The translations under genes were made by a program, and so were the position numbers. From the NCBI GenBank assembly GCA_964384905.1, contig CAYLND010000002.1:669-64668 (forward strand): DNA of 64,000 nucleotides, given 5' to 3'. Source of the stretch: an uncultured Acidobacteriota bacterium (GTDB lineage Bacteria > Acidobacteriota > Polarisedimenticolia > Gp22-AA2). Below are positions 7,430 through 59,477 of the stretch, piece after piece; positions within the stretch are counted from its first letter, which is position 1, and every line of letters begins with the position of its first letter. A model generated the notes under the pieces. It made no database searches, had not been told where the DNA came from, and worked only from the letters and a program-made list of their open reading frames with translations.

Positions 7430-7605
7430 GCGGTCCGGGTCGGCCGTTGCTGTAGGGTCATGACCCCTTATTCTCCGCCGACGCGTCCATCCACTACAAG
7501 CAGGGGGGCCGGGGCCCCGCACGCGGACCGTCCGGGCGGCGACGCCGCCGGCGCTCCGGCGCGCTACAATCGCACGGTCCGTTGCGCGTGCGGGAGGTGA
7601 CTCGG

Positions 7606-7986
7606 ATGACGCAGACCGACACGAGGCAGTACGAGGTGGGCGCCCGATCGACGGAGATGTTCGGTCGCGTGCTCTGCAGCGCCCGGAATCACCACTTCAT
7701 CGCCGACGGCCCGGTGCAGAACGGCTGCCCCGGCGAAGCGCTCACCCCGCCCGAGCTCTTTCTCGCGGGAATCGCCGCCTGCGGCGTCGAGCTCCTGCAG
7801 GTCCTCGCGCGCGATCAGAGCCTGCCTCTCCAGACCGTCAGCGTTCAGGTGACGGGCGTCATCGACCGGGCCAACCCGGTGCGCCGCGACCTGACGGTGT
7901 TCAACTCGGTGCGGCTGAAGTTCCGCCTGCGGGGGGTAGGCGAGCAGGAAGGAGCGCGGCTCGTCGAGGGCTTCAAGGGCCGGTGA
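7606..7986 (+). CDS. OsmC/Ohr-family peroxiredoxin-like protein
   Basis: GGGAGG RBS 8 nt before the ATG at 7606. The OsmC-type pattern is present (conserved Cys pair, ELFLAGIAACGVELL). Confidence 0.75.
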   Translation: MTQTDTRQYEVGARSTEMFGRVLCSARNHHFIADGPVQNGCPGEALTPPELFLAGIAACGVELLQVLARDQSLPLQTVSVQVTGVIDRANPVRRDLTVFNSVRLKFRLRGVGEQEGARLVEGFKGR

Positions 7987-8076
7987 CCCCTGTACGGCTC
8001 GGTCGCGGTCGCGACCCCGGACGTGCAGGTCGAATTCGTCGCCGAGGCCTAGCGGCTCGATCGACGGCCGCCGGTT

Positions 8077-8340
8077 CTACCTGCAGGTCCCGCTCGAGCA
8101 GACTCCATTGGACGTCAGGCACACCGTCGGCAACGTTCCGGTGGTGCACGTGTTCTTCGGCGTGCAGGTCCTGAAGCAGTGCGGATGGCTCGCGGCGTAG
8201 GCGTCGGCCGCCGTCAGGGCCGACAGAGCCGAGACGTAGGGACCGACGACCGGACCCGGGGCCGGCATGAGCGCCGGGGCCAGGCCGACGATGGCGATGA
8301 TCACGAAGCACCGGAGCGCGAGCTGGGCTGGTCTGCTCAT
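8077..8340 (-). CDS. small secreted cysteine-rich protein (87 aa), function unknown
   Basis: GAGGAGAGGA RBS and ATG at 8340. Signal peptide with probable cleavage after ADAYA. The mature ~37-aa part (SHPHCFRTCTPKNTCTTGTLPTVCLTSNGVCSSGTCR) carries 6 Cys. Confidence 0.45.
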   Translation of the reverse strand: MSRPAQLALRCFVIIAIVGLAPALMPAPGPVVGPYVSALSALTAADAYAASHPHCFRTCTPKNTCTTGTLPTVCLTSNGVCSSGTCR

Positions 8341-8539
8341 CGGAATCCTCTCCTCTGCCCGGCGGATGGGCAAGTTCTTCGGGCAGCCGGGCCTCGCCCG
8401 AAGTGCAAGGCGCCCCAGGGGGTGAAGAAAGAAATACGCGCATCTCTCGCCGCCGTCAAGCACGATCCGCGGCGTCGATCACCGATGGGTCGACCGGCAT
8501 CAGTCCGACGTATGATCCCGACCCCCTGAAGGAGGGAAC

Positions 8540-8809
8540 ATGAAGAAGACCGTGGTACCTGTCGTCGCGCTGCTTGTGCTGACCGGCGGTTTCCTCTTCG
8601 CCGCCAGACCGGCCCAGAACGTGGGCCCCGGCCGTCATCCGAATCTCGCCGCCGCGCAGAGGCTCGTGCGGGAGGCGTTCGAGAAAATCAGCGCCGCCCA
8701 GAAGGCGAACGAGTGGGACATGAGCGGACACGCACAGAAGGCCAAGGAGCTTCTCGACCAGGTCAACGCCGAGCTGAAGGAGGCGGCCGAAGCAGCCAAC
8801 CAGAAGTAG
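8540..8809 (+). CDS. small secreted alpha-helical protein (89 aa), function unknown
   Basis: GAAGGAGGG RBS. Signal peptide MKKTVVPVVALLVLTGGFLFAA, followed by a K/E/A-rich helical region. Confidence 0.5.
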   Translation: MKKTVVPVVALLVLTGGFLFAARPAQNVGPGRHPNLAAAQRLVREAFEKISAAQKANEWDMSGHAQKAKELLDQVNAELKEAAEAANQK

Positions 8810-9014
8810 ACGACGAGGGAATGGCCGGAACCGGGAAGAGGGTCAGGGGCGGGCCCTCAACAAAATCCCGCGGCGCTGGTCCGCCCCGGGTTCTCTCGAG
8901 AGCCCGCCCTTGGACTGCGTGCTGCGCTGCGGGCTTTCTGACGGGATAGTCAGCCCGAGCGCGCCTGCGCCGGGAGACGATCGCTCCCGAGCAGGCGACG
9001 GCGTCGGAAGAGAC

Positions 9015-9149
9015 CTACGCCGCGCGATACCTTCTCTGCAGCTTCTTGAAGGCAGAGACCAGCCGGGCGTGCCGCTTCCGAGCCTGCACGGCCTGCCGAA
9101 AAGCCTGCCTCATCTTCGCCTGCAGCTTCCTGCGTGTTCTCTTGGTCAT
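9015..9149 (-). CDS. very basic 44-aa protein (MTKRTRRKLQAKMRQAFRQAVQARKRHARLVSAFKKLQRRYRAA), function unknown
   Basis: AGGAGG RBS 6 nt before the second ATG. Highly K/R-rich helical peptide. Divergent from the histidine kinase gene. Whether it is a real gene is uncertain. Confidence 0.3.
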   Translation of the reverse strand: MTKRTRRKLQAKMRQAFRQAVQARKRHARLVSAFKKLQRRYRAA

Positions 9150-9356
9150 CATCCACCTCCTGCCCGGAACATAATTCCCTGTGCAACCGGAGTCCAGCAT
9201 CCGGGCACTCGACGCAGCCGGGTCGTGGTCATGGAGAGTTGCAAAGGGGTCAAGGAGCGGAAAAGAGTCAAATTTCCGACACGGCGGAGAACAGGCTGGC
9301 GCGGGATCACTCGAACCGGTGTCCGTGCTTGACCTCGAAGACGGGTCTCATCGATC

Positions 9357-11162
9357 ATGGGAATCATGCCCGACACGCGCGCCGACCACGACCTGAAGCA
9401 GCGCAACCTGGAGCTGGAGACGCTGCGCGAGCTGTCGGAGCGGATCCAGGACCGGCACGGCGAGGAGGAGATCCTCCAGGCGGCGCTCGATCTGGTGCTG
9501 GACAGGCTGAGGCTGCAGGCCGGATGGATCTTCTGGGGCGAGGCAAGCCGCGGCGCCATGGAGCTGGCGGCGAGCCGCGGACTGGCGGAGGGATTCCTCC
9601 GACAGGCCCGCGAGCGCGGCGTGGGAGACTGTCTCTGCAAGGACGTGTTCGCGACGGGACGGCTGCGGGTGGCGCGCAATACTCTCGAGTGCCCGCGGCT
9701 CCCGGATCTCGTCTGCGGGAGCGCCACGCAGACGCATGCCTGCATCCCGCTGAAGTTCGAGCGCGGCACGCTCGGCGTCCTGAACATCGCCAACCGGCCC
9801 GGCGAGCTGTTCACGCGGCAGGAGCTGCAGTTCCTGGAGACGGTCGGCTACCAGGTCTGCCTCGCGGTCGACAAGGCGCGCTCCAGTCGCATCGAGAACC
9901 GGCGCAACGCCGAGGCGCGCGCCCTGGTCGCCCTGACCCGCGCCATCGGGGGAAGCCTCGATCAGGAGCGCGTCCTCGCCGCCGTCGGCTCGTACGGCCA
10001 AGAGCTGCTCCAGGCGGATCGGTGCGCGATCTTCCTCGGGGACGGGATGACCCCTCCGCGTCTGGCCTACCTTTCGGGTCCGCCGATGGCAGGGCTCGAG
10101 GTCGGCGCCACGGTCGACTTCGCGGCCCTGGGATCCAAGGCGGTTCTCGGGGCGCTGACCTCGCGCCGGACGCTCGTGATCCAGGACGCCAGCAGCGACG
10201 AGCGCGTCAACGCCGACCTGGCGCGTCGCTGGGGGATCCGATCGGGCATCCTGGTCCCGCTCCTGGCGCACGGCCGGATGGAGGGGCTGCTCGCAGCCGA
10301 TCGGGGCCAGGCGTCGACCTGGAGCCGGGAGCAGATCGAGCTCGCGGACGCCCTGGCGGCGCACGCGGCGGTGGCGATCGAGAACGCACGTCTCTATCGC
10401 GAGGCCCGGGAAGCGCTCCTGCAGCTGCGGGCGGCGCAGCACGGGATGCTGCGGGCGGAGCGCCTGGCCGCGGTCGGCACGCTGGCCGCGAGCCTGGCGC
10501 ACGAAGTGCGCAATCCCCTCAACTCGATCGGCCTGCAGCTCGTGCTGTTGTCACGCCGCGTCGCGCGGCTGGGGAGCGCCGCCGATCCGGACATGATCTC
10601 CCTGATCGAGAGAGCGCGCCTGGAGATCGATCGGCTGGATGGTCTGGTCGGAGAGTTCCTCTCGCTCTCGACGATCGACAGGGTCCGACTGGCGGAGCAC
10701 GATGTCCGGACGATCGTGCACGAGATCCTCGGTCTCATGGTCCAGGTCGCCCAGCAGAAAGGAATCGAGCTCGAGGAGCGCGCCGCGCCCGCTCAGGCCC
10801 ACGTGATGGTCGACGAGGAGAAGATCAAGCAGGTCCTCATCAATCTGGTGCGCAACGCGATCGAAGCGACCCCGAAGGGCGGGTCCGTGGTGGTGTCGAC
10901 GCGGGTCTCGAGGGACGCCGTGGTGATCGAAGTCGCGGACACCGGCGTCGGGATCGGCCCTGATCTGGACGTGTTCGACTTCTTCACCACGACCAAACGA
11001 GGCGGCACCGGTCTCGGCCTGCCGATCGCGCGTCGGATCGTCGAGGCCCATGGGGGACGATTGACCTACGAGAGCCGGCCGGGGCAGGGCACGCGGTTCC
11101 ACGTCACGCTCGTGCCGCCCGACGAGGACGGCGCCGGCACCCGCACGGGGGAGCGGCGATGA
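9357..11162 (+). CDS. sensor histidine kinase with tandem GAF domains
   Basis: Two GAF-like regions, HisKA (LAHEVRNPLNSI) and HATPase_c (GTGLGL). Overlaps the response regulator gene by ATGA. Confidence 0.85.
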   Translation: MGIMPDTRADHDLKQRNLELETLRELSERIQDRHGEEEILQAALDLVLDRLRLQAGWIFWGEASRGAMELAASRGLAEGFLRQARERGVGDCLCKDVFATGRLRVARNTLECPRLPDLVCGSATQTHACIPLKFERGTLGVLNIANRPGELFTRQELQFLETVGYQVCLAVDKARSSRIENRRNAEARALVALTRAIGGSLDQERVLAAVGSYGQELLQADRCAIFLGDGMTPPRLAYLSGPPMAGLEVGATVDFAALGSKAVLGALTSRRTLVIQDASSDERVNADLARRWGIRSGILVPLLAHGRMEGLLAADRGQASTWSREQIELADALAAHAAVAIENARLYREAREALLQLRAAQHGMLRAERLAAVGTLAASLAHEVRNPLNSIGLQLVLLSRRVARLGSAADPDMISLIERARLEIDRLDGLVGEFLSLSTIDRVRLAEHDVRTIVHEILGLMVQVAQQKGIELEERAAPAQAHVMVDEEKIKQVLINLVRNAIEATPKGGSVVVSTRVSRDAVVIEVADTGVGIGPDLDVFDFFTTTKRGGTGLGLPIARRIVEAHGGRLTYESRPGQGTRFHVTLVPPDEDGAGTRTGERR

Positions 11163-12556
11163 CGCCGGGCAGAGGGCGCATCCTGATCGCGGACGACGAG
11201 GAGGCGGCGCGGACCACCCTGGGACAGATCCTCAGCGAGGACGGCTACGAAGTCTTCCAGGCCGTCGACGGCGAAGAGGCCCTCCGTCTCGTCGCCGAAC
11301 TGTCACCCGACGTGCTGCTGAGCGACCTCAAGATGCCCCGGCTCGACGGGCACGAGCTTCTCCAGCGCGTGCGCCAGGGTTATCCCGACGTCACGCTCGT
11401 GATCATGACGGCGCACGGAACGATCGACAGCGCCGTCCGGGCGGTCAAGCAGGGGGCCGAGGATTACCTGACCAAGCCGATCGACGTCGAGGAGCTCGAG
11501 CGGATTCTGGTGCGGGTGATGGACAAGCGGCGTCTGGTGGCGGAAACCCGCATCCTGCGCGAGCGCGTGGACGAGAAGTACCGCTTCGAGAACATCATCG
11601 GCCGCAGCCACGGGATGCTGGAGGTGTTCCGTCTGGTCGAGCAGGTCGCCCCGAGCCAGGCCTACATCCTGATCACCGGCGAGACCGGCACCGGCAAGGA
11701 GCTGATCGCGCAGGCGATTCACCAGCGCAGCGCTCGACGCGACGCGCCGTTCGTGAAGGTGGCCTGCGCGGCGCTGCCGGAGACGCTGCTGGAGAGCGAG
11801 CTGTTCGGGCACGAGCGCGGGGCGTTCACGGGGGCGCTGGCGCGGCGGTCCGGGCGGTTCGAGATGGCCGCAGGCGGAACGCTGTTCCTCGATGAGATCG
11901 GCGACATCACGCCCGGCGTGCAGGTCAAGCTGCTGCGCTTCCTGCAGGACCATCAGTTCGAGCGGGTCGGGGGCAACCAGACGCTGACGGTCGATGCGCG
12001 AGTCATCGCGGCGACCCATCGCAATCTCCAGACGCTCGTCCGCGAAGGCAAGTTCCGCGAGGATCTGTTCTACCGCCTCAACGTGATCGAGATCGCGCTG
12101 CCGCCGCTGCGCGCCCGCCCGCACGATCTCCCGCTCCTGGTCGAGTTCTTCCTGCGCCGCTTCGCCGCCGCCAACGGCAAGGAGCCCCTGTCCATCGCCG
12201 ACGACGCCCTCGCCGCTCTCGCCGGCTACGACTGGCCCGGGAACGTCCGAGAGCTCGAGCACGCCATCGAGCGCGCCGTCGTCCTGGCGCGCGGTCCCGC
12301 GATCGACCGGTCGCTGTTCCCCGCGCTCCCCGCGACCACACCGCCGCGCCCCGGCAACGGGCCGATCGTGCCGGGCTCCAGTCTCGAGGAGATCGAGCGC
12401 GACGCCATCCGCAAGACTCTCGAATCGGTCGGTGGCTCCACGTCGCGGGCGGCCGCCATCCTCAAGATCAGTCCGCGGACGATCCAATACAAATTGAAGG
12501 AGTACCGGCGGGGCGGTGCGGTCGACAGGCCGGCCACGACGCGGGGGAGGGAATGA
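11159..12556 (+). CDS. sigma-54-dependent response regulator, NtrC family (REC + AAA+ sigma-54 activator + Fis-type HTH)
   Basis: REC domain (ILIADDEE...D54 region), Walker [15 protein letters not shown] motif, C-terminal HTH. Confidence 0.9.
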
Positions 12557-12559
12557 GAA

Positions 12560-13717
12560 TCAGAGAGGTCGCTTGACGTCCGTGATCCAGGTCGTGACCG
12601 GCCCCTGGCGTGGATCGGACGCGTCGCGGTACGCGAGTCGGGCCGCGATCGCCCGGGCGCCCTGTGGCACGGACACCGTCAAGCGCTCCACGCGCGACTC
12701 ACCCGGGCGGATGCGGGTATCGGCTCCGACCGAAGCCGATTTCAGGAACATGTCGGAGACCAGCTCCAGCACGCTGCCTCGATCGTCTTTCAGCTCCCTG
12801 CGATAGATCCGCTCCTGGCGGAGCTCCAGCCGGCCGTCCGCGGTCTCGACGCCCACCTCTAGGATCAGGCTCTTGCTGGCCAGACCGCCCGGGATCGAGT
12901 GGCCGGCGGCCGCGTTGGTCACCGAGACGGTCACCGAGGCGGAACCGCTCCCTCGTGCGACCGAGTCGATCGTCAGGTCCAGCCCGCGCGCCAGCTGGCT
13001 CACGGCGCTGCCACCGACCAGCCGATGCAGATTGACGACCCGCAGCCCGCTCCGTGGCGGCGCTCCGGCCGCCCTGGTTCCCGGCACGAGCGCCATGTGA
13101 CAGTCCTGGCACGCGACGCCGCGGGCTGGATAGCCGCTGGCCTTCCACTCGCTGTAGTTCGAGAGTACGGCGACGCCTTGGGCGTTCCTGTACTCGTGGC
13201 AGGCGGCGCACAGGAGCGGGTTGTTGCGGTGCAGAGTCGAGTAGGCGGTCTCGTGCCCCTGCACCCGGCCGCCGGCGTAATCGAAGGGGCCTCGCTTCAC
13301 CGCCCCGGGCCGCGAGACGAACGGCGATCCCTGGGCATCCATCGTGACGTCCGCCACCGTGTGGCAGAAGTCGCAGGTCACTCCTTCGCGGGAGATCGGC
13401 TCCTCCATGCCGACGTCGGAGGTCAGGAGCGTCGTCGGCGCATGGCACCAGACGCACCCCTGGCGCGCGGTGGGGCCGGAGATCCGTGACAGAGATTCGC
13501 GGTAGGCGGCGCTCTCGGCCGAGCGCGCGTGGGCGGAGTCGGACCAGGCCTTGTAGATCACGTCGTGGCAAGCGCCGCACCTCTTCGCCGCAGTGTAAAG
13601 AGGCTCGGACGGTCGGGCGCTTTCGCTCGCGGCCGATCCGGACATGCGCGCGGACGTCAGGAACAGGAGCGTCAGGAGAACGGCGTGCCGGACATTCTCG
13701 CGGCGCATCAGCGGCAC
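12560..13717 (-). CDS. pentaheme c-type cytochrome, secreted
   Basis: Signal peptide plus five CxxCH motifs (CGACH, CVWCH, CDFCH, CAACH, CQDCH). Confidence 0.8.
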   Translation of the reverse strand: MPLMRRENVRHAVLLTLLFLTSARMSGSAASESARPSEPLYTAAKRCGACHDVIYKAWSDSAHARSAESAAYRESLSRISGPTARQGCVWCHAPTTLLTSDVGMEEPISREGVTCDFCHTVADVTMDAQGSPFVSRPGAVKRGPFDYAGGRVQGHETAYSTLHRNNPLLCAACHEYRNAQGVAVLSNYSEWKASGYPARGVACQDCHMALVPGTRAAGAPPRSGLRVVNLHRLVGGSAVSQLARGLDLTIDSVARGSGSASVTVSVTNAAAGHSIPGGLASKSLILEVGVETADGRLELRQERIYRRELKDDRGSVLELVSDMFLKSASVGADTRIRPGESRVERLTVSVPQGARAIAARLAYRDASDPRQGPVTTWITDVKRPL

Positions 13718-13724
13718 GAATCGT

Positions 13725-14258
13725 TCAATGGATCGTGGGCTCGGTGCGATGGGTCAGATCCATCGTCTCGAGACGTTCGAGATAGCCGCGCGCGATCGTT
13801 CCGGCATCCTCCCACTTGCCGTTCAGGACGAGGCGGTTGAGACTCGAGAGCATCACCAGACAACCGCCGAACTCCTGGAACACGCGGCAGAAAAGGCACC
13901 GGGTGCCGATCGATTCGGCGCGTGGATCGAACTTGAGCAGGCTCCGTTGGCGCGGCGCCTGTCCCTTGAGGACCGCGGCGCGAGTGACGTCCGCTTCGTC
14001 GCAGAACTCGTCCATGACGTTGGCGAGGCCGAGCACTCCAGGCTCGTCGCGCGCCTCGATGCGGCTCACGATCTCCCGCCAGCGCGCGATGACATCCGCT
14101 CGGGCCCTGTCCCAGGCGTTCTTACCGTCTTCGGTCACCTCGGGTCTCCTCGGAGGGCCCGGCCCGATCGCCGGGATCCCTTCCCTTTCCACTCCTTTGC
14201 GAAATCCATGCTCAGGGACGCTCTGTCCGGAGACGGCGGTTTCGAAGCCATCGGGCAT
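13725..14258 (-). CDS. hypothetical protein (177 aa) immediately upstream of the pentaheme cytochrome
   Basis: The C-terminal 177 aa of a long minus-strand ORF read as real protein (..CLFCRVFQEFGGC..LVLNGKWEDAGTIARGYLERLETMD). The stop lies 8 nt before the cytochrome start. No RBS recognised. The upstream part of the ORF is antisense to uspA and reads as nonsense. Confidence 0.4.
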   Translation of the reverse strand: MPDGFETAVSGQSVPEHGFRKGVEREGIPAIGPGPPRRPEVTEDGKNAWDRARADVIARWREIVSRIEARDEPGVLGLANVMDEFCDEADVTRAAVLKGQAPRQRSLLKFDPRAESIGTRCLFCRVFQEFGGCLVMLSSLNRLVLNGKWEDAGTIARGYLERLETMDLTHRTEPTIH

Positions 14259-14370
14259 GGGGTCCGGCGTCCGGCCGCAAAGATTTCCGCGCGTTCCCGC
14301 CGCCGGCGCAAGGGTTGCGTCCGCCCGCACGAGCGCGTCTCGATCCACCGGAGGACGGCCGAGTGAGTCA

Positions 14371-14386
14371 TGGCACCCGACTTGCT
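14371..14386 (+). promoter_or_regulatory. sigma-54 promoter, exact TGGCAC-N5-TTGCT consensus
   Basis: TGGCAC at 14371-14376, a 5-nt spacer, TTGCT at 14382-14386. It sits 57 nt upstream of the uspA-like ATG (14443), and the NtrC-type activator is encoded nearby. Confidence 0.55.
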
Positions 14387-14442
14387 TGAACGTCGGCGGG
14401 TCCCGGGAAGCGGGCGTGGCCGGCGCATCGTGGAGGCGGAAC

Positions 14443-14913
14443 ATGAAGCAAAAGCGTACGGGATCGGAACCTCGCTGGATTCTGGTCGGCATGGATTTCT
14501 CGCGGGCCGCCCGGCAGGCGCTGGTCGCGGCGCGCGGAGTGGCGCGGGAGCGCGATGCGACCCTCCTCGTCGTCCATGTGATCGACGGACAGGGTCTGGA
14601 GGAGGTGGCGCGTCTGGCGGAGGTCTCCGAGCGCGTTCTGCGCGAGCGGATCGGGCGCGAGCGGCGCCAGCGCCTGGCCGAAGCGCTGCGCGCGATGGAA
14701 GACGATGCAGACCCGGTTCCGACGGAGTCGATCATCGCCTGGGGTCGTCCGTTCGAGGCGCTCCTGAAGAAGGCGTCAGAGATCTCCGCCTTTCTCATCG
14801 TTCTGGGGACAGCGGGGCACTCGGCCGATCTCGAGAAGGCGCTGTTCGGCAGCACCGCGGAAAAGGTGCTGCGGTCGGCGTCCTGCCCGGTGCTGTGCGT
14901 GCCGGCGGAGTGA
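14443..14913 (+). CDS. universal stress protein (UspA family)
   Basis: GGAGG RBS. UspA-type pattern (LLVVHVID...GRP...LIVLGTAGHS...GSTAEKVLRSASCPVLCVP). Confidence 0.8.
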   Translation: MKQKRTGSEPRWILVGMDFSRAARQALVAARGVARERDATLLVVHVIDGQGLEEVARLAEVSERVLRERIGRERRQRLAEALRAMEDDADPVPTESIIAWGRPFEALLKKASEISAFLIVLGTAGHSADLEKALFGSTAEKVLRSASCPVLCVPAE

Positions 14914-14935
14914 GCGGGTCCGAGGCGATGCTTTC

Positions 14936-15380
14936 CAGGCTGGCCGTTCCGAGGGCTCTGCGATCCGGGCACCTGTGGCTGCGCCAGGGGCTGGCGGGTG
15001 CGATCGATCGGGGCGGGAAGACGGGGGTCGCCGCGCGCCGCGTCGTCGAGCTCCTCGAGCCGCACGTCGCCAGGGAAGAGGAGTTCGCGCTTCCGCCGCT
15101 CTCCCTGCTTCCCGTGCTCGCGCGGGGCGGGACGGTGTCCGACGAGGCGGGCGCCCTGGCGATGACCGACCGCCTCAGGGCCGAGATGAGCCGGATGATC
15201 GGCGAGCACGACGAGATCGCGGTCGCCCTGCACGCGCTCATCGTCGCGGCCCAATCGGAGGGGCACCCCGGGATCGCGGATCTGGCGAAGGAGCTCGTCC
15301 ATTATGCGGAGACGGAAGAAGAGGTCCTGTATCCCGCGGCCCTCCTTGTGGGCGAGCTCCTGAAGTCACGCAGGGCCTGA
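14936..15380 (+). CDS. hemerythrin HHE cation-binding domain protein
   Basis: 148-aa helical protein with a H...HxxxE...H...HxxxE-type arrangement (EPHVAREEE...IGEHDEI...LVHYAETEEE). Confidence 0.65.
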
Positions 15381-15435: not shown

Positions 15436-16809
15436 ATGCGCGACCTGTTCGTTGCGCTGACGCGGAGCACGATCAGTCTCGCGGGCTCGGCGCTCACCAC
15501 GGCGAGCGCCTGCGTCTTCCTGGTGCTCCTGGGGATCGATCTCGCCGGCCGGCTCCACAGCCCCTATCTCGGCATCCTCGCCTATCTGCTGATCCCCGCT
15601 CTCTTCCTCCTGGGACTGGCCCTGATTCCGATCGGCATCGCCTGGGAGCGCCGGCGGGCCCGGGGCGGGCCGGTGTCGTCGCTTCCGATCCTCGATCTCA
15701 ACGTGGCGCGGACCAGGACGATCGTGCTCGGCTTCCTGATCCTGACCGCCGCCAACGTGGTGCTGATCGCCACGGCGACCTACAAGGGGGCCGTGATCAT
15801 GGACAGCACGCGGTTCTGCGGGACGACGTGCCACACGATCATGGCCCCCGAGTACGCCGGCCACGCACGCAGCGCGCACGCGTCGGTGCGCTGCGTCGCG
15901 TGCCACATCGGTCCGGGCGGGACCTGGTTCGTGAGAGCCAAGCTGTCGGGCACGCGGCAGGTGCTGGAAGCGGCGCTCCATCTCTATCCGCGCCCGATCC
16001 CCGCGCCGGTCCAGGTGCTCCGGTCGGCGCGCGAGACCTGCACGGAATGCCACCAGGCGGCCAGGGATCTCGGCGACCGGCGTCGCGCGATCGGCCATCG
16101 CTCCGACGACCGCGGCAGCACGCGGCAGGAAACCGTCCTGCTGATGCACCTCGGTGGGAGGCGAGGGGACCGCGCCGTCGGGATCCACTGGCACGCCGAC
16201 CCGACCATCCGGATCCGCTACCGCTCGGATCCGAAACGCGAGGCGATCGACACGGTCGAGCTGTCGGAGGCGGACGGCCGGGTCACCACCTTCGCCCCGA
16301 AAGGCCGCGAGGTCGAATCCGCGGGCGCCGGCGCGGCGGCAGGTGAATGGCGCGTGATGGATTGCGTCGACTGCCACAACCGCGTGGCACATCCCTCCCG
16401 CTCGCCCGAGCGCGAGGTCGACGAGGCGATGGATCGGGGGCTGATCGACGCCACGCTGCCGTTCATCCGCCGTGAGGCCGTCCGGCTGCTCGGGCAGGCC
16501 GGTGGCGCGCCGGACCAGGCGCGCAGGGATCTCGCCGCGGGCCTGCGGGCGTTCTACGGGACGAGCGATCCGGCGCTGGCGGCGGCACGCAAGGAGGCGA
16601 TCGAGGCGGCCGGCCGAGTCCTCGGAGATCTCTACGACCGGAACGTCTTCCCCGCCATGAAGGTGAGCTGGGGCATCTATCCCGATCATCTCGGTCACGT
16701 CGATTCGCCGGGCTGCTTCCGGTGCCATGACGACAGCCACGTCTCCGCCGACGGCAGGGTGATCTCGCAGGACTGCGACACCTGCCATCGCGAGGAGACT
16801 CCGTCGTGA
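15436..16809 (+). CDS. membrane-anchored hexaheme c-type cytochrome (NapC/NirT-related; CymA/ImcH-like quinol dehydrogenase candidate)
   Basis: N-terminal TM helices, then six CxxCH motifs (CGTTCH, CVACH, CTECH, CVDCH, CFRCH, CDTCH). GAGAGG RBS. Confidence 0.75.
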   Translation: MRDLFVALTRSTISLAGSALTTASACVFLVLLGIDLAGRLHSPYLGILAYLLIPALFLLGLALIPIGIAWERRRARGGPVSSLPILDLNVARTRTIVLGFLILTAANVVLIATATYKGAVIMDSTRFCGTTCHTIMAPEYAGHARSAHASVRCVACHIGPGGTWFVRAKLSGTRQVLEAALHLYPRPIPAPVQVLRSARETCTECHQAARDLGDRRRAIGHRSDDRGSTRQETVLLMHLGGRRGDRAVGIHWHADPTIRIRYRSDPKREAIDTVELSEADGRVTTFAPKGREVESAGAGAAAGEWRVMDCVDCHNRVAHPSRSPEREVDEAMDRGLIDATLPFIRREAVRLLGQAGGAPDQARRDLAAGLRAFYGTSDPALAAARKEAIEAAGRVLGDLYDRNVFPAMKVSWGIYPDHLGHVDSPGCFRCHDDSHVSADGRVISQDCDTCHREETPS

Positions 16810-17933
16810 CCATCGGACGCATCGACTACGAGCGCGCTCCCTTCCTGATCATCTGGGAGACCACCCAGGCGTGCGACCTGGCCTGCCGTCACTGTCGCGC
16901 CTCCGCGCGTCCCTGGCGCGACCCTGCCGAGCTCAGCACCGCGGAGGGGGAGGACCTGCTCGGCCAGGTCGCGGAGCTCGGCACGCCGATCGTCGTCCTG
17001 AGCGGCGGCGATCCCTTGAAGCGCGACGATCTGTTCCGCCTCGTCGAGGTCGGCGCGGCGCTGGGGATCCGGATGGCCGCGATCCCGGCCGCGACGGAGC
17101 GTCTCACCGAGCGGGTGATCGTCGAGTTCGTCCATGCGGGGCTCAGCCAGATGGCGCTGAGCCTCGATTTTCCGAGGGCGGCGCTGCACGATCGCTTCCG
17201 GGGGGCCCCGGGAGCCTTCGAGCGCACGATCCGGGCGGCGGCCTGGGCCCGCTCCCACGCTCTGCCCCTGCAGATCAACACGACGCTCCATGCGGCCTCG
17301 GCTCCGTTCATCGACGAGATGATTGACCTCGTCGGCCGCCTGGGGGCCGTCTTCTGGGAGGTGTTCTTCCTGGTGCCGATCGGTCGCGGCTCGGAGCTGC
17401 AGGGGCTGACGCCGGCGGGGTGCGAGGAGATTTTCGCCGTCCTCTACCGGGCCCAGAAACGCGTTCCGTTCCTGATCAAGGTCACCGAGGCGCCGCACTA
17501 CCGCCGCTTCGTCGCGCTCAAGGAGCGCTCCGGGCGGGGATCCGAGGCGGCGCGACGACCGGTCCGCCGGCTTCCGGCGCAGCTCATCCGGACCGAGGGG
17601 CCGGGCCACTCCATCGGCCTCGCGCCGCGCGGGGTCAACGCCGGGAACGGCTTCCTCTTCGTCTCGCACACGGGCGACATCTACCCGAGCGGGTTCATGC
17701 CGCTCACCGCCGGAAACGTCCGGACCGACCGACTGGCGCGTGTGTACCGCGACTCGGAGCTCTTCCGGCGGCTGCGCCAGCCGGAGCGATTGACCGGCGC
17801 CTGTGGTCTCTGCGCCTTCAACCCGATCTGCGGTGGCTCGCGCTCCCGCGCCCTGGCGCTGACGGGTGATTATCTGGCCAGCGATCCCTGGTGCGGCTTT
17901 CGGACGCGGGTGAACCGGCTCGCGGGCTCGTGA
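16806..17933 (+). CDS. radical SAM/SPASM-domain protein, AhbD/NirJ-like
   Basis: LIIWETTQACDLACRHC (CX3CX2C in the AhbD/NirJ sequence context) plus a C-terminal SPASM-type Cys cluster (CGLCAFNPICGG). GTG start overlaps the cytochrome stop (GTGA). Confidence 0.8.
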   Translation: MTIGRIDYERAPFLIIWETTQACDLACRHCRASARPWRDPAELSTAEGEDLLGQVAELGTPIVVLSGGDPLKRDDLFRLVEVGAALGIRMAAIPAATERLTERVIVEFVHAGLSQMALSLDFPRAALHDRFRGAPGAFERTIRAAAWARSHALPLQINTTLHAASAPFIDEMIDLVGRLGAVFWEVFFLVPIGRGSELQGLTPAGCEEIFAVLYRAQKRVPFLIKVTEAPHYRRFVALKERSGRGSEAARRPVRRLPAQLIRTEGPGHSIGLAPRGVNAGNGFLFVSHTGDIYPSGFMPLTAGNVRTDRLARVYRDSELFRRLRQPERLTGACGLCAFNPICGGSRSRALALTGDYLASDPWCGFRTRVNRLAGS

Positions 17934-18111
17934 TCGAGGTCGAATGTTTCGCGCGTCTCGACGCGCCGCGCATAAATTGCGCCGCGCTTGTGGTCCGGAT
18001 GGCGAAGGGAGCGACGGATTGAGGTCGTCACGCGCAGGGCATGAGGATTGCAGTGGCGAGCGATCGATGAGGGAGCGAATGGACAAGCCCCTATCCTCGA
18101 GAGACCACTCC

Positions 18112-19071
18112 ATGTCGAGAGCACCGATACGCATGATTCTCGGCTTCGCGGCGGTGTCCGTCATCGTGCCGGCAGGGTGCGCCGTCTCGATCGCGTCGGA
18201 GCAGGCGACGCAGCAGGTCACCGAGACGAAGACAAAGACGGCCGCCGGATCGGGGTACGCCGAGCCGGGCGCCTGCGCCGCCTGCCACGAGGCGGAGGCG
18301 GCGGCACTCGCGGCGACCAGGCACGGCAAGACCGGGAAGACCAACTGGGAGGGTGCGGCCGGCTGCGAGGCCTGTCACGGTCCCGGCGCGGCGCACGTGG
18401 AGGCGGGGGGCACGAAGGAGACGATCCGCAATCCGGCGACGCTTCCCGCCACCGAGCTCAGCGCCGTCTGCCTGAGCTGCCACGAGCGCGGCGATCAGTC
18501 GCACTGGAGCGGCAGCGCGCACGAGGGACGCGGTCTTGCGTGCACCTCCTGCCACAGCATCCATCACTCCGCCTCGCCGACGACCAAGCTTCTCCTCAAG
18601 AAGACCGAGTTCGAGACCTGCACGTCATGCCACCTGAAGCGGAAGGCGTCGCTCTATCGCTCCGCCCACATGCCGATGCGGGAGGGTCAGGTCACCTGCA
18701 CCTCCTGTCACAACCCGCACGGCAGCAACGGGCCGTCGATGCTGAAGCAGTTCTCGGTCAACGAGAACTGCTACGCCTGCCACGCGGAGAGACGGGCGCC
18801 GATGCTCTGGGAGCATCCACCGGTCAAGGAGAGCTGCACCAACTGCCACGATCCCCATGGGTCGCTGCACCCGCGACTGCTGATCGCCAAGGTCCCGCGT
18901 CTGTGCCAGCAGTGCCACGACGAGACGCGCCACCCGACGCAGCCGTACTCGGACGCCTCGGTGGCGCCCGAGTTCTTTCCGAACAGCCGGATGTTCGACC
19001 GCGGCTGCGTGAACTGCCACTCGATGATCCACGGCTCGAACCATCCTTCGGGGATGCGATTCCTGAGATAG
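18112..19071 (+). CDS. periplasmic decaheme c-type cytochrome, MtrA/DmsE/PioA family
   Basis: Signal peptide and ten CxxCH motifs in ~320 aa, matching the MtrA-family spacing. The start is ambiguous (ATG 18067, 18079 or 18112). 18112 gives a canonical signal peptide with GAGAG 9 nt upstream. Confidence 0.8.
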   Translation: MSRAPIRMILGFAAVSVIVPAGCAVSIASEQATQQVTETKTKTAAGSGYAEPGACAACHEAEAAALAATRHGKTGKTNWEGAAGCEACHGPGAAHVEAGGTKETIRNPATLPATELSAVCLSCHERGDQSHWSGSAHEGRGLACTSCHSIHHSASPTTKLLLKKTEFETCTSCHLKRKASLYRSAHMPMREGQVTCTSCHNPHGSNGPSMLKQFSVNENCYACHAERRAPMLWEHPPVKESCTNCHDPHGSLHPRLLIAKVPRLCQQCHDETRHPTQPYSDASVAPEFFPNSRMFDRGCVNCHSMIHGSNHPSGMRFLR

Positions 19072-19082
19072 GAGGGACGGTC

Positions 19083-21461
19083 ATGACGTGGCGCGGCATC
19101 GCCATCGGACTCGTGATCGGAGCGTGCTTCTGGCCGTCGGTCGCGTCCGCCGCCGACAAGGAGCAGAAGGGGAGCGTCACGGGCGAGGCGCTGGTCGGGG
19201 TCACCGGTCAGGATCAGGACCCGGTCGACTCCGCCAAGTTCCACGAGTTCCGGGACGTGCCGAGCGGCTTCACCGCCGACCGCCTGTTCCTGAGCTGGAC
19301 GCCCAGGGAAGACTTCTTCTTCGATCTGCGCGCGGCCGACGTGTCGCAGCGCGACCAGAGGATCGGGGTGACGTTCGGCAGGACTGATCTCTGGCAAGGA
19401 TCGATGACATGGACGGAAAACCCCCGCCTCTGGACCGATCACGCCCGTCAGCTGTATGCCCGGCAGGCGGGAGCCGTGTTCACTCTCGACGACTCCCTGC
19501 AGTCGGCCATCCAGGGCGGCGCGGCGAACGTCGACGCGGACAGCAACGGTCAATGGGACGCCGGGACCAAGGGGGCGATCCTGAAGAGCGCCATCAACAG
19601 CTCCGCGCAGGAGATCCCCGTCGGGTGGCGCCGCGAGACGGGCGGCCTGGGATTCAGGCTGACCCCCGGACGTCACTGGACCTTCACCGCTTCCGGGCAG
19701 CGCGAGCGCCGCGCCGGCGCGATTCCGCAGTCGCTCGGGATGTACTTCGCGCTGTCGCCGAGCGAGGTCGCCGCGCCGCTCGATTACCGCACCGACTGGG
19801 AGTCGGTCGGGGCGGAGTACACCCGGCGAGGCTTCAACGCCGGCGTGCAGCTCACCGCCTCGCAGTTCGCGACCGGCTACGATTCGGTCACCTGGGACGA
19901 TCAGCTCTTCCTCAACGACACGGCGGTGAACGCCACGACGGCCGACCCGGCGCGCGGGCGCCTGTCCTCCGCCACCGGCAACCGGATGGCGCAGGGCACC
20001 CTGTTCGGCGGAGTCAACCTGCCGGCGCACACGCGCATCGACGCGACGGTGTCGCGCTCGCAGACGACGCAGGACGATCCGTTCCTGCCGACCACGACGA
20101 ACACCTTGCTGTCGCCGGCCGCCCTGCCGGCGACGAGCTACGACGGAAAGTACGACGTCGACTTCGCCTCGTTGAGGGTGTCGTCTCGGCCGACGAAGCT
20201 TCTGCGCTGGTCGGCCTGGGCCCGCGACTGGAAATACGACAACAAGTCGCCCGATCCGACCTTCGCCGACTATGTCATGACCGACTACCAGATCCCTCTC
20301 TGCCAGAACGCCAACGAGTGCGGCGCGACCACGAACCACATCGCTCGCCGCAGCCTGCCGTACGGCTGGCACCGCACGAACTTCGGAGGGTCCGCCGGCA
20401 TCCACCCGGTGTCCTGGCTGGACGGATCGCTCTCTCTCGAACGCGAGGACATCCGGCGCGATTTCAGCGCGGTCACGCGGAGCCACGACGACACGCTGAA
20501 GGTGACGCTCGATTTCGACGTCGCGGAGTGGCTCAGCATCAAGACGACTGCGCGCCGGCAGGAGCGGCGGGCCGACGACTACGACGCCGAGTACAACCTG
20601 GCGTCGTTTCCGATCGGCGAGGCGTTCGTGGCCGCCTCCAACGAAGGAGAGCGGCGCTTCATCTGGACCGACCGCGACCGCGATCAGTACAGTCTCCTCC
20701 TCGATTTCAACGCGACGAAGACGATTTCGATCTATGCCGAGACCACCTACACGCGGGATCTGTATCTCGATCCGAACACCGGAAAGCACATCGGGGATTC
20801 GTTCACCGTCCAGGAGGATCGCAACTTCGATACGGTTCCCGAGACCATCGACCTGCTCCTGGCGGGCCGGACCGACGACAAATACCTGTCCTACACGCTC
20901 GGGTTCGGCATCGCGCCCGGTCCGCGCTTCAGTCTCTACGCCGACTACACCTGGGAGGACAGCACCTACGGTCTCGAGAGCCGCTTCCGCACGCCCGTGT
21001 CCGGCATCGGCTCCGACAATCCGCTGGACAACTGGGGCGCCGACACGGACGACAGGTACAAGACCGCCACGCTCGGCTTCTCGGCAGATCCGTCGGGGGA
21101 CGCACGCTGGAAGATCGACGTCGACGCCTCCCGCTCGGAAGGGACCGGCAGGATCGCCAACCATTTCGTGCCCGGCGGGAACGCTTCCTCGGACACCACT
21201 CTCCTCGAATTCCCTCTCCTGAAGACGACGCTGACGATCGCGCAGGTGGGTTTCACGCGGACAATCAACAAGAGCCTCGACTACTCCGTTCGCTACTGGT
21301 ATGAGTCGTGGCACGAGGACAACTTCGCGAGCGATTTTTCACAGCCTTACATGGGGGATCCTGGAAACGATCCGGGGTCGGGGACTTCGATCTTTCTGGG
21401 CCTGGATTTCGCGAACTACACGAACCATCTCCTGACCTTCTTCATGCACTATCGGTTCTAG
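19083..21461 (+). CDS. decaheme-associated outer-membrane beta-barrel porin, MtrB/PioB family
   Basis: GGAGGG RBS, signal peptide, ~790-aa beta-rich protein ending in aromatic residues (FMHYRF). Sits 12 nt downstream of the MtrA-like gene, as in mtrAB/pioAB/mtoAB loci. Confidence 0.8.
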   Translation: MTWRGIAIGLVIGACFWPSVASAADKEQKGSVTGEALVGVTGQDQDPVDSAKFHEFRDVPSGFTADRLFLSWTPREDFFFDLRAADVSQRDQRIGVTFGRTDLWQGSMTWTENPRLWTDHARQLYARQAGAVFTLDDSLQSAIQGGAANVDADSNGQWDAGTKGAILKSAINSSAQEIPVGWRRETGGLGFRLTPGRHWTFTASGQRERRAGAIPQSLGMYFALSPSEVAAPLDYRTDWESVGAEYTRRGFNAGVQLTASQFATGYDSVTWDDQLFLNDTAVNATTADPARGRLSSATGNRMAQGTLFGGVNLPAHTRIDATVSRSQTTQDDPFLPTTTNTLLSPAALPATSYDGKYDVDFASLRVSSRPTKLLRWSAWARDWKYDNKSPDPTFADYVMTDYQIPLCQNANECGATTNHIARRSLPYGWHRTNFGGSAGIHPVSWLDGSLSLEREDIRRDFSAVTRSHDDTLKVTLDFDVAEWLSIKTTARRQERRADDYDAEYNLASFPIGEAFVAASNEGERRFIWTDRDRDQYSLLLDFNATKTISIYAETTYTRDLYLDPNTGKHIGDSFTVQEDRNFDTVPETIDLLLAGRTDDKYLSYTLGFGIAPGPRFSLYADYTWEDSTYGLESRFRTPVSGIGSDNPLDNWGADTDDRYKTATLGFSADPSGDARWKIDVDASRSEGTGRIANHFVPGGNASSDTTLLEFPLLKTTLTIAQVGFTRTINKSLDYSVRYWYESWHEDNFASDFSQPYMGDPGNDPGSGTSIFLGLDFANYTNHLLTFFMHYRF

Positions 21462-21495: not shown

Positions 21496-23811
21496 ATGCC
21501 CGAACAGGATCAGGCACACGCGGGGCTCTCTCCGTGGTGGCGGCACGCCGCCATCCTGGTGATGATCTTCGGGTTCACCGTCCTGACCATCGTCACGGTC
21601 AGGACCTATACCAACGCGCCGCCGATACCGGCGGTCGTCGTCGATCAATCCGGGGCCCCGCTGTTCGGGCGGGCGGACATCGAGCACGGCCAGGAGGTCT
21701 TTTTCAAGTACGGGTTGATGGAGCACGGGACCCTCTGGGGGCATGGCGCCTACCTGGGCCCCGACTACAGCGCCGAGTACCTGCATCGTCTTGCGGAGAT
21801 CACGCGCGACACGCTGGCGACCTCGCGGTACGGTGTCGCGTACGCCGATCTGCAGCCTGCCGCGGCCAGCGACGTGAACGAGGCGGCCCGGCGCGAGCTG
21901 AAGGAGAATCGCTACGACGACGGGAAGGACAGGCTGACCTTCTCGCCCGGAGAGTCGGCGGCTTTCGCCGTCCAGAAGACGGAGTGGCACGACTATTTCG
22001 CGGGTCGCACGCCGGCACCCGGCTTGCCGGCCAACTACATCGGGAACACGGACGAGCTGGCGGCGCTGACCGCTTATTTCGCCTGGGCCGCTTGGGCGGC
22101 GGTCGCGAACCGTCCCGGCAAGGACTATTCCTACACCAACAACTGGCCGTACGACCCGGCGGCGGGCAACACGCCGAGCGCCTCGACCTATCTCTGGAGC
22201 GGGCTGAGTCTCGTCACGCTGCTCTCCGGTCTCGGTCTCGTCCTGTTCGTGTTCGGCAAGTTCGACTATCTCGGGTGGCGCGGCGAGAAGGGCACGGACC
22301 ACACGCACGGCAGCAACCTTCTCGGCTGGCGGACGACCCCGAGCCAGCGGGTCACCGCTCTCTACTTCGTGGTCGTGGCCCTGCTCTTCCTGCTCCAGAC
22401 GCTCGCCGGCGGCGCCCTGGCGCACTATCGGGTCGAGTCGGGCGCGTTCTACGGGCTCGATCTGGCGCGTTTTCTGCCGTACAACCTGCTGCGCACCTGG
22501 CACCTGCAGCTGGCGATCTTCTGGATCGCAACCGCCTGGGTGGCGGGCGGGCTGTTCCTGGCGCCGATCGTCGGAGGCGGCGAGCCACGAGGCCAGAGGG
22601 CCGGTGTGGTGATCCTCCTCGGCGCCCTCGCGGTCGTCGTCTTCGGGAGTCTCGCCGGCGAATACCTCGGGATCAACGGCCGGCTCGGCGGGCTCTGGTT
22701 CTGGCTGGGGCATCAGGGCTCGGAATATCTCGACCTCGGCCGCTTCTGGCAGCTCCTTCTGGCGGTCGGCCTCGTCCTGTGGCTGGTGCTGATGTTCCGC
22801 GCCTTGCGCCCGGCGATGAAGCGAGGCGGTCGGGACTCGCTGGCGGCGCTTTTTCTCTACGCCGCGGTGGCCATCCCGGTCTTCTACCTGCCCGCGCTGT
22901 TCTACGGACCGCACACCAACTACGCGGTCATCGACAACTGGAGGTTCTGGATCATCCATCTCTGGGTGGAGGGGTTCTTCGAGCTGTTCGCCACGGTGCT
23001 GGTCGCCGTCATCTTCTTACAGATGGGGCTGGTGAGCGCGCGCACGGCGACGCGCCTGGTCTACCTCGACGCCATTCTCTATCTGGGCGCGGGCGTCATC
23101 GGCACCGGACACCACTGGTACTTCACCGGCCAGGGGACGCTCAACATGGGTCTGGCGGCCTGCTTCTCCGCCATGGAAGTGGTGCCGCTGACGCTCCTGA
23201 CGCTGGACGCGTGGGACTTCGTCCGGCTCAAGGATCGGCGCTGCGACGATTGCGGGAAGCCGTTCGCCGCGCGCCAGAAGTGGGCGATCTACTTCCTGAT
23301 GGCGGTCGGATTCTGGAACTTCGTCGGGGCGGGCGTGTTCGGCTTCCTGATCAACCTGCCGATCATCTCGTATTTCGAGATCGGAACGGTGCTGACCAGC
23401 AACCATGGGCACACCGCCATGTTCGGCGTGTTCGGCATGCTGGCGCTGGGCGTTCTGGTGTTCTGCCTGCGCGCCCTGACGGACGACGAACGGTGGGCCC
23501 GCAGCGAGCCGCTGGTGCGGGTCGGCTTCTGGGGGCTCAACGCGGGTCTGGCGCTGATGGTGCTCCTGGACCTTTTCCCCGCCGGGGTCGTTCAGCTCTG
23601 GGACTCGTTGGAGAACGGCTACTGGCACGCTCGGCGGCTCTCGTTCACCATGACCGGTATCTTCCACACCCTCGAATGGCTGCGAATGGGCGCCGACCTC
23701 TGTTTCCTGCTCGCGGGCGTCGTCCCGCTCGTCGCCGCGACCCTGCGCGCCGCAATCGGCGGCCGCATCGAATCGGGCGCCCTGCCTGCCTCGGCGACCC
23801 ATCCTCGCTGA
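21496..23811 (+). CDS. norZ: quinol-dependent nitric-oxide reductase large subunit (qNOR)
   Basis: 771 aa with an N-terminal extension carrying the qNOR-type ...VFFKYGLMEHGTLWGHGAYLGPD motif, 12+ TM helices, and heme-copper/NOR catalytic motifs HLWVEGFFE and GHHWYF. Confidence 0.85.
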   Translation: MPEQDQAHAGLSPWWRHAAILVMIFGFTVLTIVTVRTYTNAPPIPAVVVDQSGAPLFGRADIEHGQEVFFKYGLMEHGTLWGHGAYLGPDYSAEYLHRLAEITRDTLATSRYGVAYADLQPAAASDVNEAARRELKENRYDDGKDRLTFSPGESAAFAVQKTEWHDYFAGRTPAPGLPANYIGNTDELAALTAYFAWAAWAAVANRPGKDYSYTNNWPYDPAAGNTPSASTYLWSGLSLVTLLSGLGLVLFVFGKFDYLGWRGEKGTDHTHGSNLLGWRTTPSQRVTALYFVVVALLFLLQTLAGGALAHYRVESGAFYGLDLARFLPYNLLRTWHLQLAIFWIATAWVAGGLFLAPIVGGGEPRGQRAGVVILLGALAVVVFGSLAGEYLGINGRLGGLWFWLGHQGSEYLDLGRFWQLLLAVGLVLWLVLMFRALRPAMKRGGRDSLAALFLYAAVAIPVFYLPALFYGPHTNYAVIDNWRFWIIHLWVEGFFELFATVLVAVIFLQMGLVSARTATRLVYLDAILYLGAGVIGTGHHWYFTGQGTLNMGLAACFSAMEVVPLTLLTLDAWDFVRLKDRRCDDCGKPFAARQKWAIYFLMAVGFWNFVGAGVFGFLINLPIISYFEIGTVLTSNHGHTAMFGVFGMLALGVLVFCLRALTDDERWARSEPLVRVGFWGLNAGLALMVLLDLFPAGVVQLWDSLENGYWHARRLSFTMTGIFHTLEWLRMGADLCFLLAGVVPLVAATLRAAIGGRIESGALPASATHPR

Positions 23812-59460: not shown

Positions 59461-59477
59461 AAGGAGACAACGGGACG

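Follow-up and report, generated by a model that had tools for sequence, protein, structure and literature searches.

An AhbD-like radical SAM protein of the TIGR04053 family encoded in a porin-cytochrome operon of an uncultured Acidobacteriota bacterium, and the linkage of its relatives to cytochrome c biogenesis genes

A stretch of 64,000 nt of DNA from an uncultured Acidobacteriota bacterium (contig CAYLND010000002.1, positions 669 to 64,668; in the following called the window) contains a gene for a radical S-adenosylmethionine (SAM) enzyme of the Twitch-type SPASM group, which lies between two multiheme cytochrome genes of an operon for a porin-cytochrome conduit (16806-17933, forward strand, 375 aa). 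Judged by its profile scores, the protein is a member of the AhbD-like family TIGR04053 and a close sister of the heme b synthase AhbD. It is probably an oxygen-independent coproheme decarboxylase, which would catalyze the final step in the formation of heme b for cytochrome production. The substrate, the reaction, the anaerobic role and the co-regulation proposed here are inferred from homology and context. In other genomes, relatives of the gene recurrently adjoin the genes for the cytochrome c synthase CcsBA and are found near multiheme cytochrome genes and, occasionally, near hemA.

The family assignment was obtained by a profile search, which had been proposed together with the original prediction of an AhbD/NirJ-like enzyme. 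The highest score was reached with the NCBIfam model TIGR04053 (432.4 bits, cut-off 395), and residues 7-366 of the protein aligned with positions 2-365 of the 366 positions of the model. The second-best model was that of the AhbD heme b synthase (TIGR04545), which was matched end to end by residues 14-366 with 300.8 bits. The scores for further NCBIfam models were 201 bits for NirJ2 (cut-off 500), 132 bits for AhbC, 130 bits for NirJ, and 118 bits for PqqE, and the match to the Pfam SPASM domain was weak (18 bits, cut-off 21.5). The AhbD/NirJ-like identity is thus supported. In the databases, the protein is matched by more than 7,800 sequences at E < 1e-20. The nearest relatives, with 63-72% identity, are mainly from metagenome-assembled genomes of Acidobacteriota, and relatives with 53-72% identity are named TIGR04053 at NCBI or 'AdoMet-dependent heme synthase' at JGI. 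As a protein, the enzyme cannot be distinguished from other members of TIGR04053, but its gene differs by its position inside an operon for a NapC-like cytochrome, MtrA, MtrB, and a quinol-type NO reductase (qNOR), and by the overlap of its start codon with a stop codon.

The cysteine motifs were analyzed in the translation and in an alignment with 30 homologues. The CX3CX2C motif of the radical SAM cluster reads WETTQACDLACRHC (C23, C27, and C30, codons at 16872-16895, + strand), and all three cysteines are invariant. A second motif, C333-X2-C336-X5-C342-X20-C363 (codons at 17802-17894, + strand), corresponds to the auxiliary-cluster motif of AhbDs, and its four cysteines are also invariant. 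All 39 AhbDs analyzed by Fix et al. have in common a CX3CX2C and a CX2CX5CX20-38C motif (PMC10452713), and both are present in the protein, the latter at the C-terminus. The full SPASM motif of eight cysteines is restricted to the AhbDs of methanogens and sulfate reducers and, therefore, is no requirement for all AhbDs, and other archaeal AhbDs have Ser and Glu in place of those cysteines (PMC10452713). The protein contains only five cysteines outside the radical SAM motif and, therefore, lacks the full eight-cysteine motif and the AuxI cluster. The fourth-cysteine position of the full-SPASM AhbDs (CX2CX5CX2C) is occupied by S345, which is invariant in the homologues. Because both universal motifs are present and an invariant serine is found at this position, the predicted cysteine layout is the Twitch-like AhbD pattern. 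The fifth cysteine, Cys206 (nt 17421-17423), which is followed by Glu207, is invariant in the 30 homologues and is located outside of the cysteine motifs described for AhbD.

The comparison with the AhbDs of M. barkeri, D. vulgaris, and H. volcanii (TIGR04545) revealed full-length similarity, both cysteine motifs, and a similar size, and no extra domains were detected in the protein. The predicted SPASM/Twitch fold, for which SuiB is the closest solved structure, is another common feature. With the AhbDs of non-methanogenic archaea, the protein shares the lack of the AuxI cysteines and the serine at the fourth-cysteine position. In contrast to the AhbDs, it belongs to a separate model, contains the additional invariant Cys206, and is not encoded near ahbA, ahbB, or ahbC; the host presumably uses the coproporphyrin pathway. 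None of these three genes, and none of the genes cpfC, cgoX/cgoN, and chdC, was found in the window or among the recurrent neighbor families of related loci.

AhbD is also found in organisms with the coproporphyrin pathway that do not contain the other Ahb enzymes, and it is presumed to be the anaerobic alternative to ChdC (PMC13564367, PMC10114771, PMC7242693), although in one paper of 2024 the enzyme for anaerobic conditions was still called 'yet unknown' (PMC10965808). Most Acidobacteria and Planctomycetota have been reported to contain ChdC, and hence the coproporphyrin pathway (PMC10991733, PMC5095920), and these two groups dominate the relatives of the radical SAM protein. ChdC (HemQ) itself differs in being no radical SAM enzyme, in using H2O2 as the oxidant, and in having an unrelated fold without similarity to AhbD (PMC13564367). 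In Haloferax, deletion of ahbD led to a defect in anaerobic growth only, which was rescued by heme (PMC5746218). The usual final enzyme of the coproporphyrin pathway, ChdC, requires H2O2, and an AhbD-type enzyme would allow Acidobacteriota and Planctomycetota to synthesize heme under anoxic conditions. The reduced [4Fe-4S] cluster at the CX3CX2C motif would cleave SAM, and the resulting 5'-deoxyadenosyl radical would attack Fe-coproporphyrin III (coproheme) by hydrogen abstraction at a propionate side chain. CO2 would then be released together with one electron, which could be passed on via the C-terminal auxiliary cluster, so that a vinyl group remains, and two such decarboxylations, at rings A and B, would generate heme b. 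The two resulting vinyl groups would be those that the cytochrome c synthase CcsBA links to the cysteines of CXXCH motifs, which provides a rationale for a pairing of the radical SAM gene with ccsBA. Two mechanisms had been suggested in the original prediction. Anaerobic heme synthesis is in agreement with the evidence and with the published expectation, whereas no positive support was found for a new modification of heme or of its side chains.

Several observations weigh against a function as coproheme decarboxylase. The score of 301 bits is below the curated AhbD equivalog cut-off of TIGR04545 (500 bits), and neither an assay nor a paper about any member of TIGR04053 was found in the searchable literature. 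AhbD homologues can act on unrelated substrates, as exemplified by the GMGT synthase (Gms), a lipid cross-linking enzyme with 36% identity to AhbD that is also found in Acidobacteria (PMC11214058). At the loci of the relatives described below, genes of the core heme pathway do not recur as neighbors, and only hemA was found, at three loci. The neighborhood statistics ignore shared ancestry, and the loci are not phylogenetically independent. A characterized AhbD-like protein from a bacterium with the coproporphyrin pathway was also not found in the searchable literature, and nothing useful was retrieved that links AhbD with multiheme cytochromes, or radical SAM enzymes with MtrA and MtrB in Acidobacteria.

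The coupling of the radical SAM gene to its upstream neighbor was analyzed at the sequence level. The upstream gene encodes a NapC/NirT-type membrane cytochrome (15436-16809, + strand) with five CXXCH motifs and a conserved CX3CH motif in its translation, an NrfH-like region (46.8 bits), and N-terminal hydrophobic, predicted transmembrane segments, which were judged from the translation by eye. The CX3CH motif reads FCGTTCH and is invariant in six homologues (C128, G129, C132, and H133), and therefore, the label 'hexaheme' is reasonable. The downstream gene encodes a decaheme cytochrome of the DmsE/MtrA family with ten CXXCH motifs (18079-19071, + strand, external gene call; TIGR03508, 258 bits, cut-off 192). 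The placement of the radical SAM gene between a membrane hexaheme cytochrome and an MtrA-like decaheme gene, as originally described, was verified by the open reading frames, the CXXCH counts, and the models. Its GTG start codon (16806-16808) and the TGA stop codon of the cytochrome gene (16807-16809) form a 4-nt GTGA overlap. The sequence around the junction (16792-16809, + strand) reads ...GAGGAGACTCCGTCGTGACC... and includes a GAGGAG Shine-Dalgarno (SD) motif inside the cytochrome gene (16792-16797), 8 nt upstream of the GTG. The GTG start and the 4-nt overlap are credible because the homologues align from residue 1-6 onward, and the claim of a start codon overlapping the stop codon of a co-oriented cytochrome gene is upheld by the sequence and the alignment. 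The composition of the reading frame is of the coding type, with G+C fractions of 0.70, 0.53, and 0.90 at the first, second, and third codon position, respectively (GC1, GC2, and GC3); the strong third-position bias resembles that of the neighboring genes, and the G+C content of the window is 68%. The same protein and the same gene order were found on three contigs that had been assembled independently from three sequencing runs.

Next, the genomic neighborhoods of relatives were compared. A scan with the radical SAM protein, using one genome per species, yielded 80 loci with 53-69% identity, and neighborhood tables were generated for 75 of them, with genes called by a GC3-based script. The scanned loci span Acidobacteriota, Vicinamibacteria, Polarisedimenticolia, Binatia, Planctomycetota, Dadabacteria, and Desulfobacterota. 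For the three closest relatives on long contigs, the radical SAM gene is divergent from Rieske/cytochrome b and multiheme genes (L004), from a gene for a fused ResB-CcsA cytochrome c synthase and a multiheme gene (L005), and from genes for c554/c7 cytochromes and an alternative-complex-III-like set (L006). Among the 135 immediate neighbors at the 75 loci, the most frequent Pfam families were ResB (11), cytochrome c7 (10), LuxR/GerE (10), and PAS (10), followed by CcsA (Cytochrom_C_asm, 8), class I cytochrome c (8), MtrC/F-type cytochromes (5), NapC/NirT (4), and cytochrome b (3). When the proteins encoded within 10 kb were clustered, multiheme cytochromes were present at 23 loci, ResB/CcsA at 17, Rieske proteins at 14, and MtrB-like porins at 4. 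The cluster of multiheme proteins to which the NapC-like family belongs occurs within 10 kb at 12 loci, and at seven of these (the window counted) a clear NapC-like homologue with five to six hemes is encoded.

The linkage to ccsBA was observed in two architectures. Genes for ResB/CcsA directly adjoin the radical SAM gene at 12 of the 75 loci; at eight loci a divergent fused ccsBA gene (770-810 aa) is located upstream, and at four loci the order is a co-directional rSAM-resB-ccsA, with gaps of 10-14 nt in three cases. This linkage is recurrent, and no description of it, nor any paper that pairs AhbD with CcsA or with cytochrome c maturation, was found in the searchable literature. The gene hemA, encoding glutamyl-tRNA reductase, is located immediately upstream of the radical SAM gene at locus L053 (387 bits), and within 10 kb, together with ccsBA, at L044 and L045. 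A multiheme or ccs gene is located within 5 kb at 36 of the 75 loci; of the 15 closest relatives, with an identity of at least 64%, 12 have such a gene at this distance. The density of multiheme genes, a figure without a genome-wide baseline, is flat at about 8-10% of the genes across the 10-kb flanks and, therefore, provides no internal control. No decay with distance was observed within 10 kb. The adjacency to ccsBA and the control with NapC-like loci (see below) are the firmer statistics.

At one locus of a distant phylum with low G+C content, the radical SAM gene is also embedded co-directionally in a multiheme respiratory module (L071, Candidatus Dadabacteria CSP1-2, 42% G+C, 7126-15020). 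The gene order is 8-heme cytochrome, NrfC/DsrO-like Fe-S protein, NrfD/DsrP-like membrane protein, radical SAM protein, 11-heme cytochrome, and NapC-like 6-heme cytochrome, and the locus provides an independent example of the gene residing inside a multiheme module. The arrangement of the window, with the radical SAM gene inside a NapC-like/MtrA/MtrB/qNOR operon, was not found at any of the related loci, 75 in total, among which L048 and L071 come closest to it. The original prediction had held that this is not a stray housekeeping gene. This part of it is supported, as in other genomes the subfamily recurs beside genes for cytochrome c biogenesis and for multiheme cytochromes and is not randomly scattered.

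Two further features of the related loci were observed. At L013, L014, and L017, the next genes downstream of the radical SAM gene encode small tri-heme c7-like cytochromes (91-134 aa) in the same orientation, and such genes occur at several loci of Acidobacteriota and Polarisedimenticolia. The Desulfobacterota bacterium AH_259_B03_O07 has two radical SAM copies, which are 84% identical and are located on separate contigs of one assembly (L080 and L083). Only one of the two copies adjoins a cluster of genes for 4-, 7-, and 10-heme cytochromes. The copies may be paralogues, one of which is dedicated, or they may represent a strain mixture (contig coverage 129x versus 81x).

The reverse analysis started from the upstream cytochrome. 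An alignment of six NapC-like homologues was used to scan metagenome contigs and yielded 80 loci with 40-53% identity and a total of 618 kb, 48 of which include at least 1.5 kb downstream of the cytochrome gene. No homologue of the radical SAM protein was detected at any of the 80 loci, neither by blastp of the called genes nor by tblastn (E <= 0.01). At four of them (L161, L136, L089, and L151), the NapC-like gene and mtrA/mtrB are adjacent or successive without the radical SAM gene. ResB/CcsA was likewise present at 0 of these 80 cytochrome-rich control loci, compared to 17 of the 75 loci of the radical SAM gene (Fisher p 1.5e-6); about 9 would have been expected at the latter rate. Because none of the 80 cytochrome loci carries it, including those with successive NapC-like, MtrA, and MtrB genes, the radical SAM gene is not a conserved component of this conduit type. 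Its position in the conduit operon is specific to this lineage and is not a standard part of such operons. The proposed search for co-occurrence with mtrA/cymA-like genes thus had a mixed outcome. The radical SAM subfamily does occur beside multiheme cytochromes and ccs genes, but the NapC-like cytochrome loci lack it, and the idea of a dedicated part of the conduit is not supported. Taken together, the link of the family to cytochrome genes is real but loose, and most probably, the gene was recruited into the conduit/qNOR operon in this lineage. With respect to extracellular electron transfer, it is an accessory passenger of one operon and not a new conduit component. The novelty that remains is the recurrent linkage of TIGR04053 to ccsBA, which is directly testable.

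These results bear on another explanation, in which the protein would be an AhbD-type heme synthase of the ordinary, genome-wide kind and the location of its gene would be incidental, resulting from gene shuffling in a cytochrome-rich island, without a special tie to the conduit. The control loci just described speak for it, and at L009 and L059 the genes for NapC-like, MtrA, MtrB, c554-like, and radical SAM proteins all occur within 10-20 kb in other orders and orientations. In addition, multiheme and ccs genes are both absent within 5 kb of the radical SAM gene at 39 of the 75 loci. Nevertheless, we regard an incidental location as rather unlikely, as the 4-nt overlap and the internal SD motif argue for co-translation with the cytochrome, the adjacency to ccsBA recurs in two architectures, and the gene is found among multiheme genes again in the distant Dadabacteria.

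A bolder extension of the heme synthase assignment is of similarly low probability. Instead of consisting merely of spare copies of AhbD, TIGR04053 could be a dedicated cytoplasmic partner of the System II synthase CcsBA in diderm bacteria with the coproporphyrin pathway (Acidobacteriota, Planctomycetota, and Dadabacteria), in which heme b would be made at the membrane and passed on directly to the synthase; in a stronger version, the family would catalyze an undescribed heme reaction for particular multiheme cytochromes. A partnership with CcsBA, if true, would explain how dozens of c-type hemes can be loaded without O2 or H2O2. Irrespective of this extension, AhbD-like proteins are the assumed anaerobic enzymes of bacteria with the coproporphyrin pathway, and the locus offers a concrete test case. 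The pairing of TIGR04053 with ccsBA and with cytochrome clusters points to a supply of heme for anaerobic cytochrome c production.

Slightly more doubtful still is that the enzyme is a dedicated maturase, which would catalyze another reaction of tetrapyrrole or cytochrome maturation, e.g., the modification of a heme side chain or a step for the CX3CH site. Such a role would fit a family that is separate from the curated AhbD, that has an extra invariant Cys206, and that belongs to a clade in which functional divergence has already occurred (AhbC, NirJ, and Gms), as well as the start/stop overlap with a cytochrome gene whose CX3CH motif is invariant. However, the homologues of the cytochrome retain the CX3CH motif without a radical SAM gene nearby at 80 of 80 metagenome loci, and most radical SAM loci lack a NapC-like gene. 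The strongest recurrent partner is the general synthase CcsBA, which is in better agreement with a general supply of heme.

Alternative families within the radical SAM/SPASM clade were also considered and were rejected. The scores were far below the cut-offs for NirJ, which acts in heme d1 biosynthesis (130 versus 515 bits; NirJ2 201 versus 500 bits), for AhbC (132 bits), for PqqE (118 versus 381 bits), and for other SPASM peptide and protein maturases, such as the sactipeptide and ranthipeptide enzymes and MftC (109 versus 265 bits). The neighbor tables of the related loci contained no conserved candidate precursor peptide adjoining the radical SAM gene. Neither nirS/nirDLGHFN nor pqq genes, tes/mss genes, or a precursor-peptide-like open reading frame were present among the scanned genes of the window or the recurrent neighbor families, in general scans that were not specifically directed at them. 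Gms enzymes comprise, by definition, 400 aa or more and have an N-terminal COG4001 domain of about 100 aa (PMC11214058). They belong to the same radical SAM/SPASM-Twitch clade and also occur in Acidobacteria and Planctomycetes, but the protein analyzed here has only 375 aa, with the radical SAM motif starting at residue 23, and lacks this lipid-binding extension. A non-heme function in a wider sense, i.e., GMGT synthase-like lipid cross-linking, maturation of proteins or of ribosomally synthesized and post-translationally modified peptides, or a role as NirJ or PqqE, is therefore very improbable, even though the SPASM/Twitch fold is shared with peptide maturases, proposed Gms enzymes are found among acidobacterial AhbD homologues, and the qNOR gene of the operon hints at denitrification, the process in which NirJ acts.

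The operon context of the heme synthase candidate was established from external gene calls on identical contigs and from Pfam and NCBIfam scans. All genes between 14443 and 23811 are co-directional. The cluster starts with genes for a universal stress protein (usp, 14443-14913, + strand, weak Usp matches) and a hemerythrin-like protein (14928-15380, + strand), both assigned by gene calls and Pfam on the identical contigs. They are followed by the genes for the NapC-like cytochrome, the radical SAM protein, and the MtrA-like cytochrome, and then by the gene for an MtrB/PioB-type outer-membrane porin (19083-21461, + strand; Pfam MtrB_PioB, 224.8 bits), which scores below the cut-off of NCBIfam TIGR03509 (174.6 versus 240 bits). 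The locus therefore contains a gene for a DmsE/MtrA-family decaheme cytochrome adjoining a gene for an MtrB/PioB porin, which defines a porin-cytochrome conduit. The last co-directional gene encodes the qNOR, a NorB with an N-terminal cytochrome c-like domain (21496-23811, + strand; PF22085, 188 bits; COX1, 181 bits). Upstream, candidate regulators are encoded by the genes for a GAF-domain histidine kinase (9357-11162, + strand, Pfam) and an NtrC-type sigma54 activator, a response regulator (11159-12556, + strand, Pfam).

A sigma54-type promoter consensus, TGGCACCCGACTTGCT (14371-14386, + strand), is located 57 nt upstream of the usp start and is the sole zero-mismatch sigma54 match in the window. 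Based on this perfect consensus and the adjoining genes for the GAF kinase and the NtrC-type activator, the genes of the conduit and the qNOR appear to form a sigma54 regulon. Terminator-like sites were not found in any intergenic gap of the cluster, the matches all being inside genes, and a scan for sigma70 promoters as well as an Rfam search of the window yielded nothing. The radical SAM gene is probably one cistron of a sigma54-dependent transcript, the promoter and the transcript being predicted. The proposed transcript encodes at least 16 c-type heme sites, according to the motif count, and a heme-copper-type NO reductase. In such a sigma54-driven unit, the heme supply would rise together with the demand of about 16 c-type hemes for one copy each of the two cytochromes and the hemes of the NO reductase, and the enzyme would be expressed together with heavy heme consumers under low-oxygen or NO-related conditions. 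A weaker sigma54 match with two mismatches, GGGCATGAGGATTGCA (18037-18052), is present in the gap between the radical SAM gene and mtrA; its quality is at the chance level (13 found, 15 expected).

The locus resembles the MtrAB/PioAB/MtoAB conduits with a CymA/NapC-type quinol dehydrogenase in that a DmsE/MtrA-family decaheme cytochrome, an MtrB/PioB porin, and an inner-membrane NapC/NirT-type multiheme cytochrome are encoded in one cluster. In contrast to these conduits, mtrA is separated from the gene for the inner-membrane cytochrome by the radical SAM gene, this cytochrome contains six heme sites including one CX3CH, an MtrC-type outer cytochrome is absent, and the qNOR gene directly follows the porin gene. 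The qNOR gene starts 34 nt past the porin gene on the same strand, and genes for a hemerythrin-like protein and usp are located upstream in the cluster, which hints at a coupling of the conduit to NO reduction or to Fe(II) oxidation under denitrifying conditions.

Some observations were made for the neighboring cytochromes. The NapC-like family, with its unusual CX3CH motif FCG[TQ]xCH, is widespread in soil and sediment metagenomes (more than 585 matches). The cytochrome presumably resembles the ImcH-type inner-membrane cytochromes of metal reducers. The reading frame of the decaheme cytochrome contains in-frame start codons at 17944, 18019, and 18079. The signal peptide predicted from the start at 18079 ends with ...IVPAGC, a possible lipobox, and therefore, the MtrA-like protein may be a lipoprotein. 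A divergent gene encodes a pentaheme c554-like cytochrome (12560-13717, - strand), which has a weak similarity to ExtKL-type multiheme proteins and has homologues near the radical SAM gene at L009, L016, and L055. Two genes for B12-binding radical SAM proteins (50636-52132 and 59457-60968, + strand) are located inside a long co-directional cluster at about 28.5-64 kb, which begins with genes for a polysaccharide export protein and a heparinase II/III-like protein.

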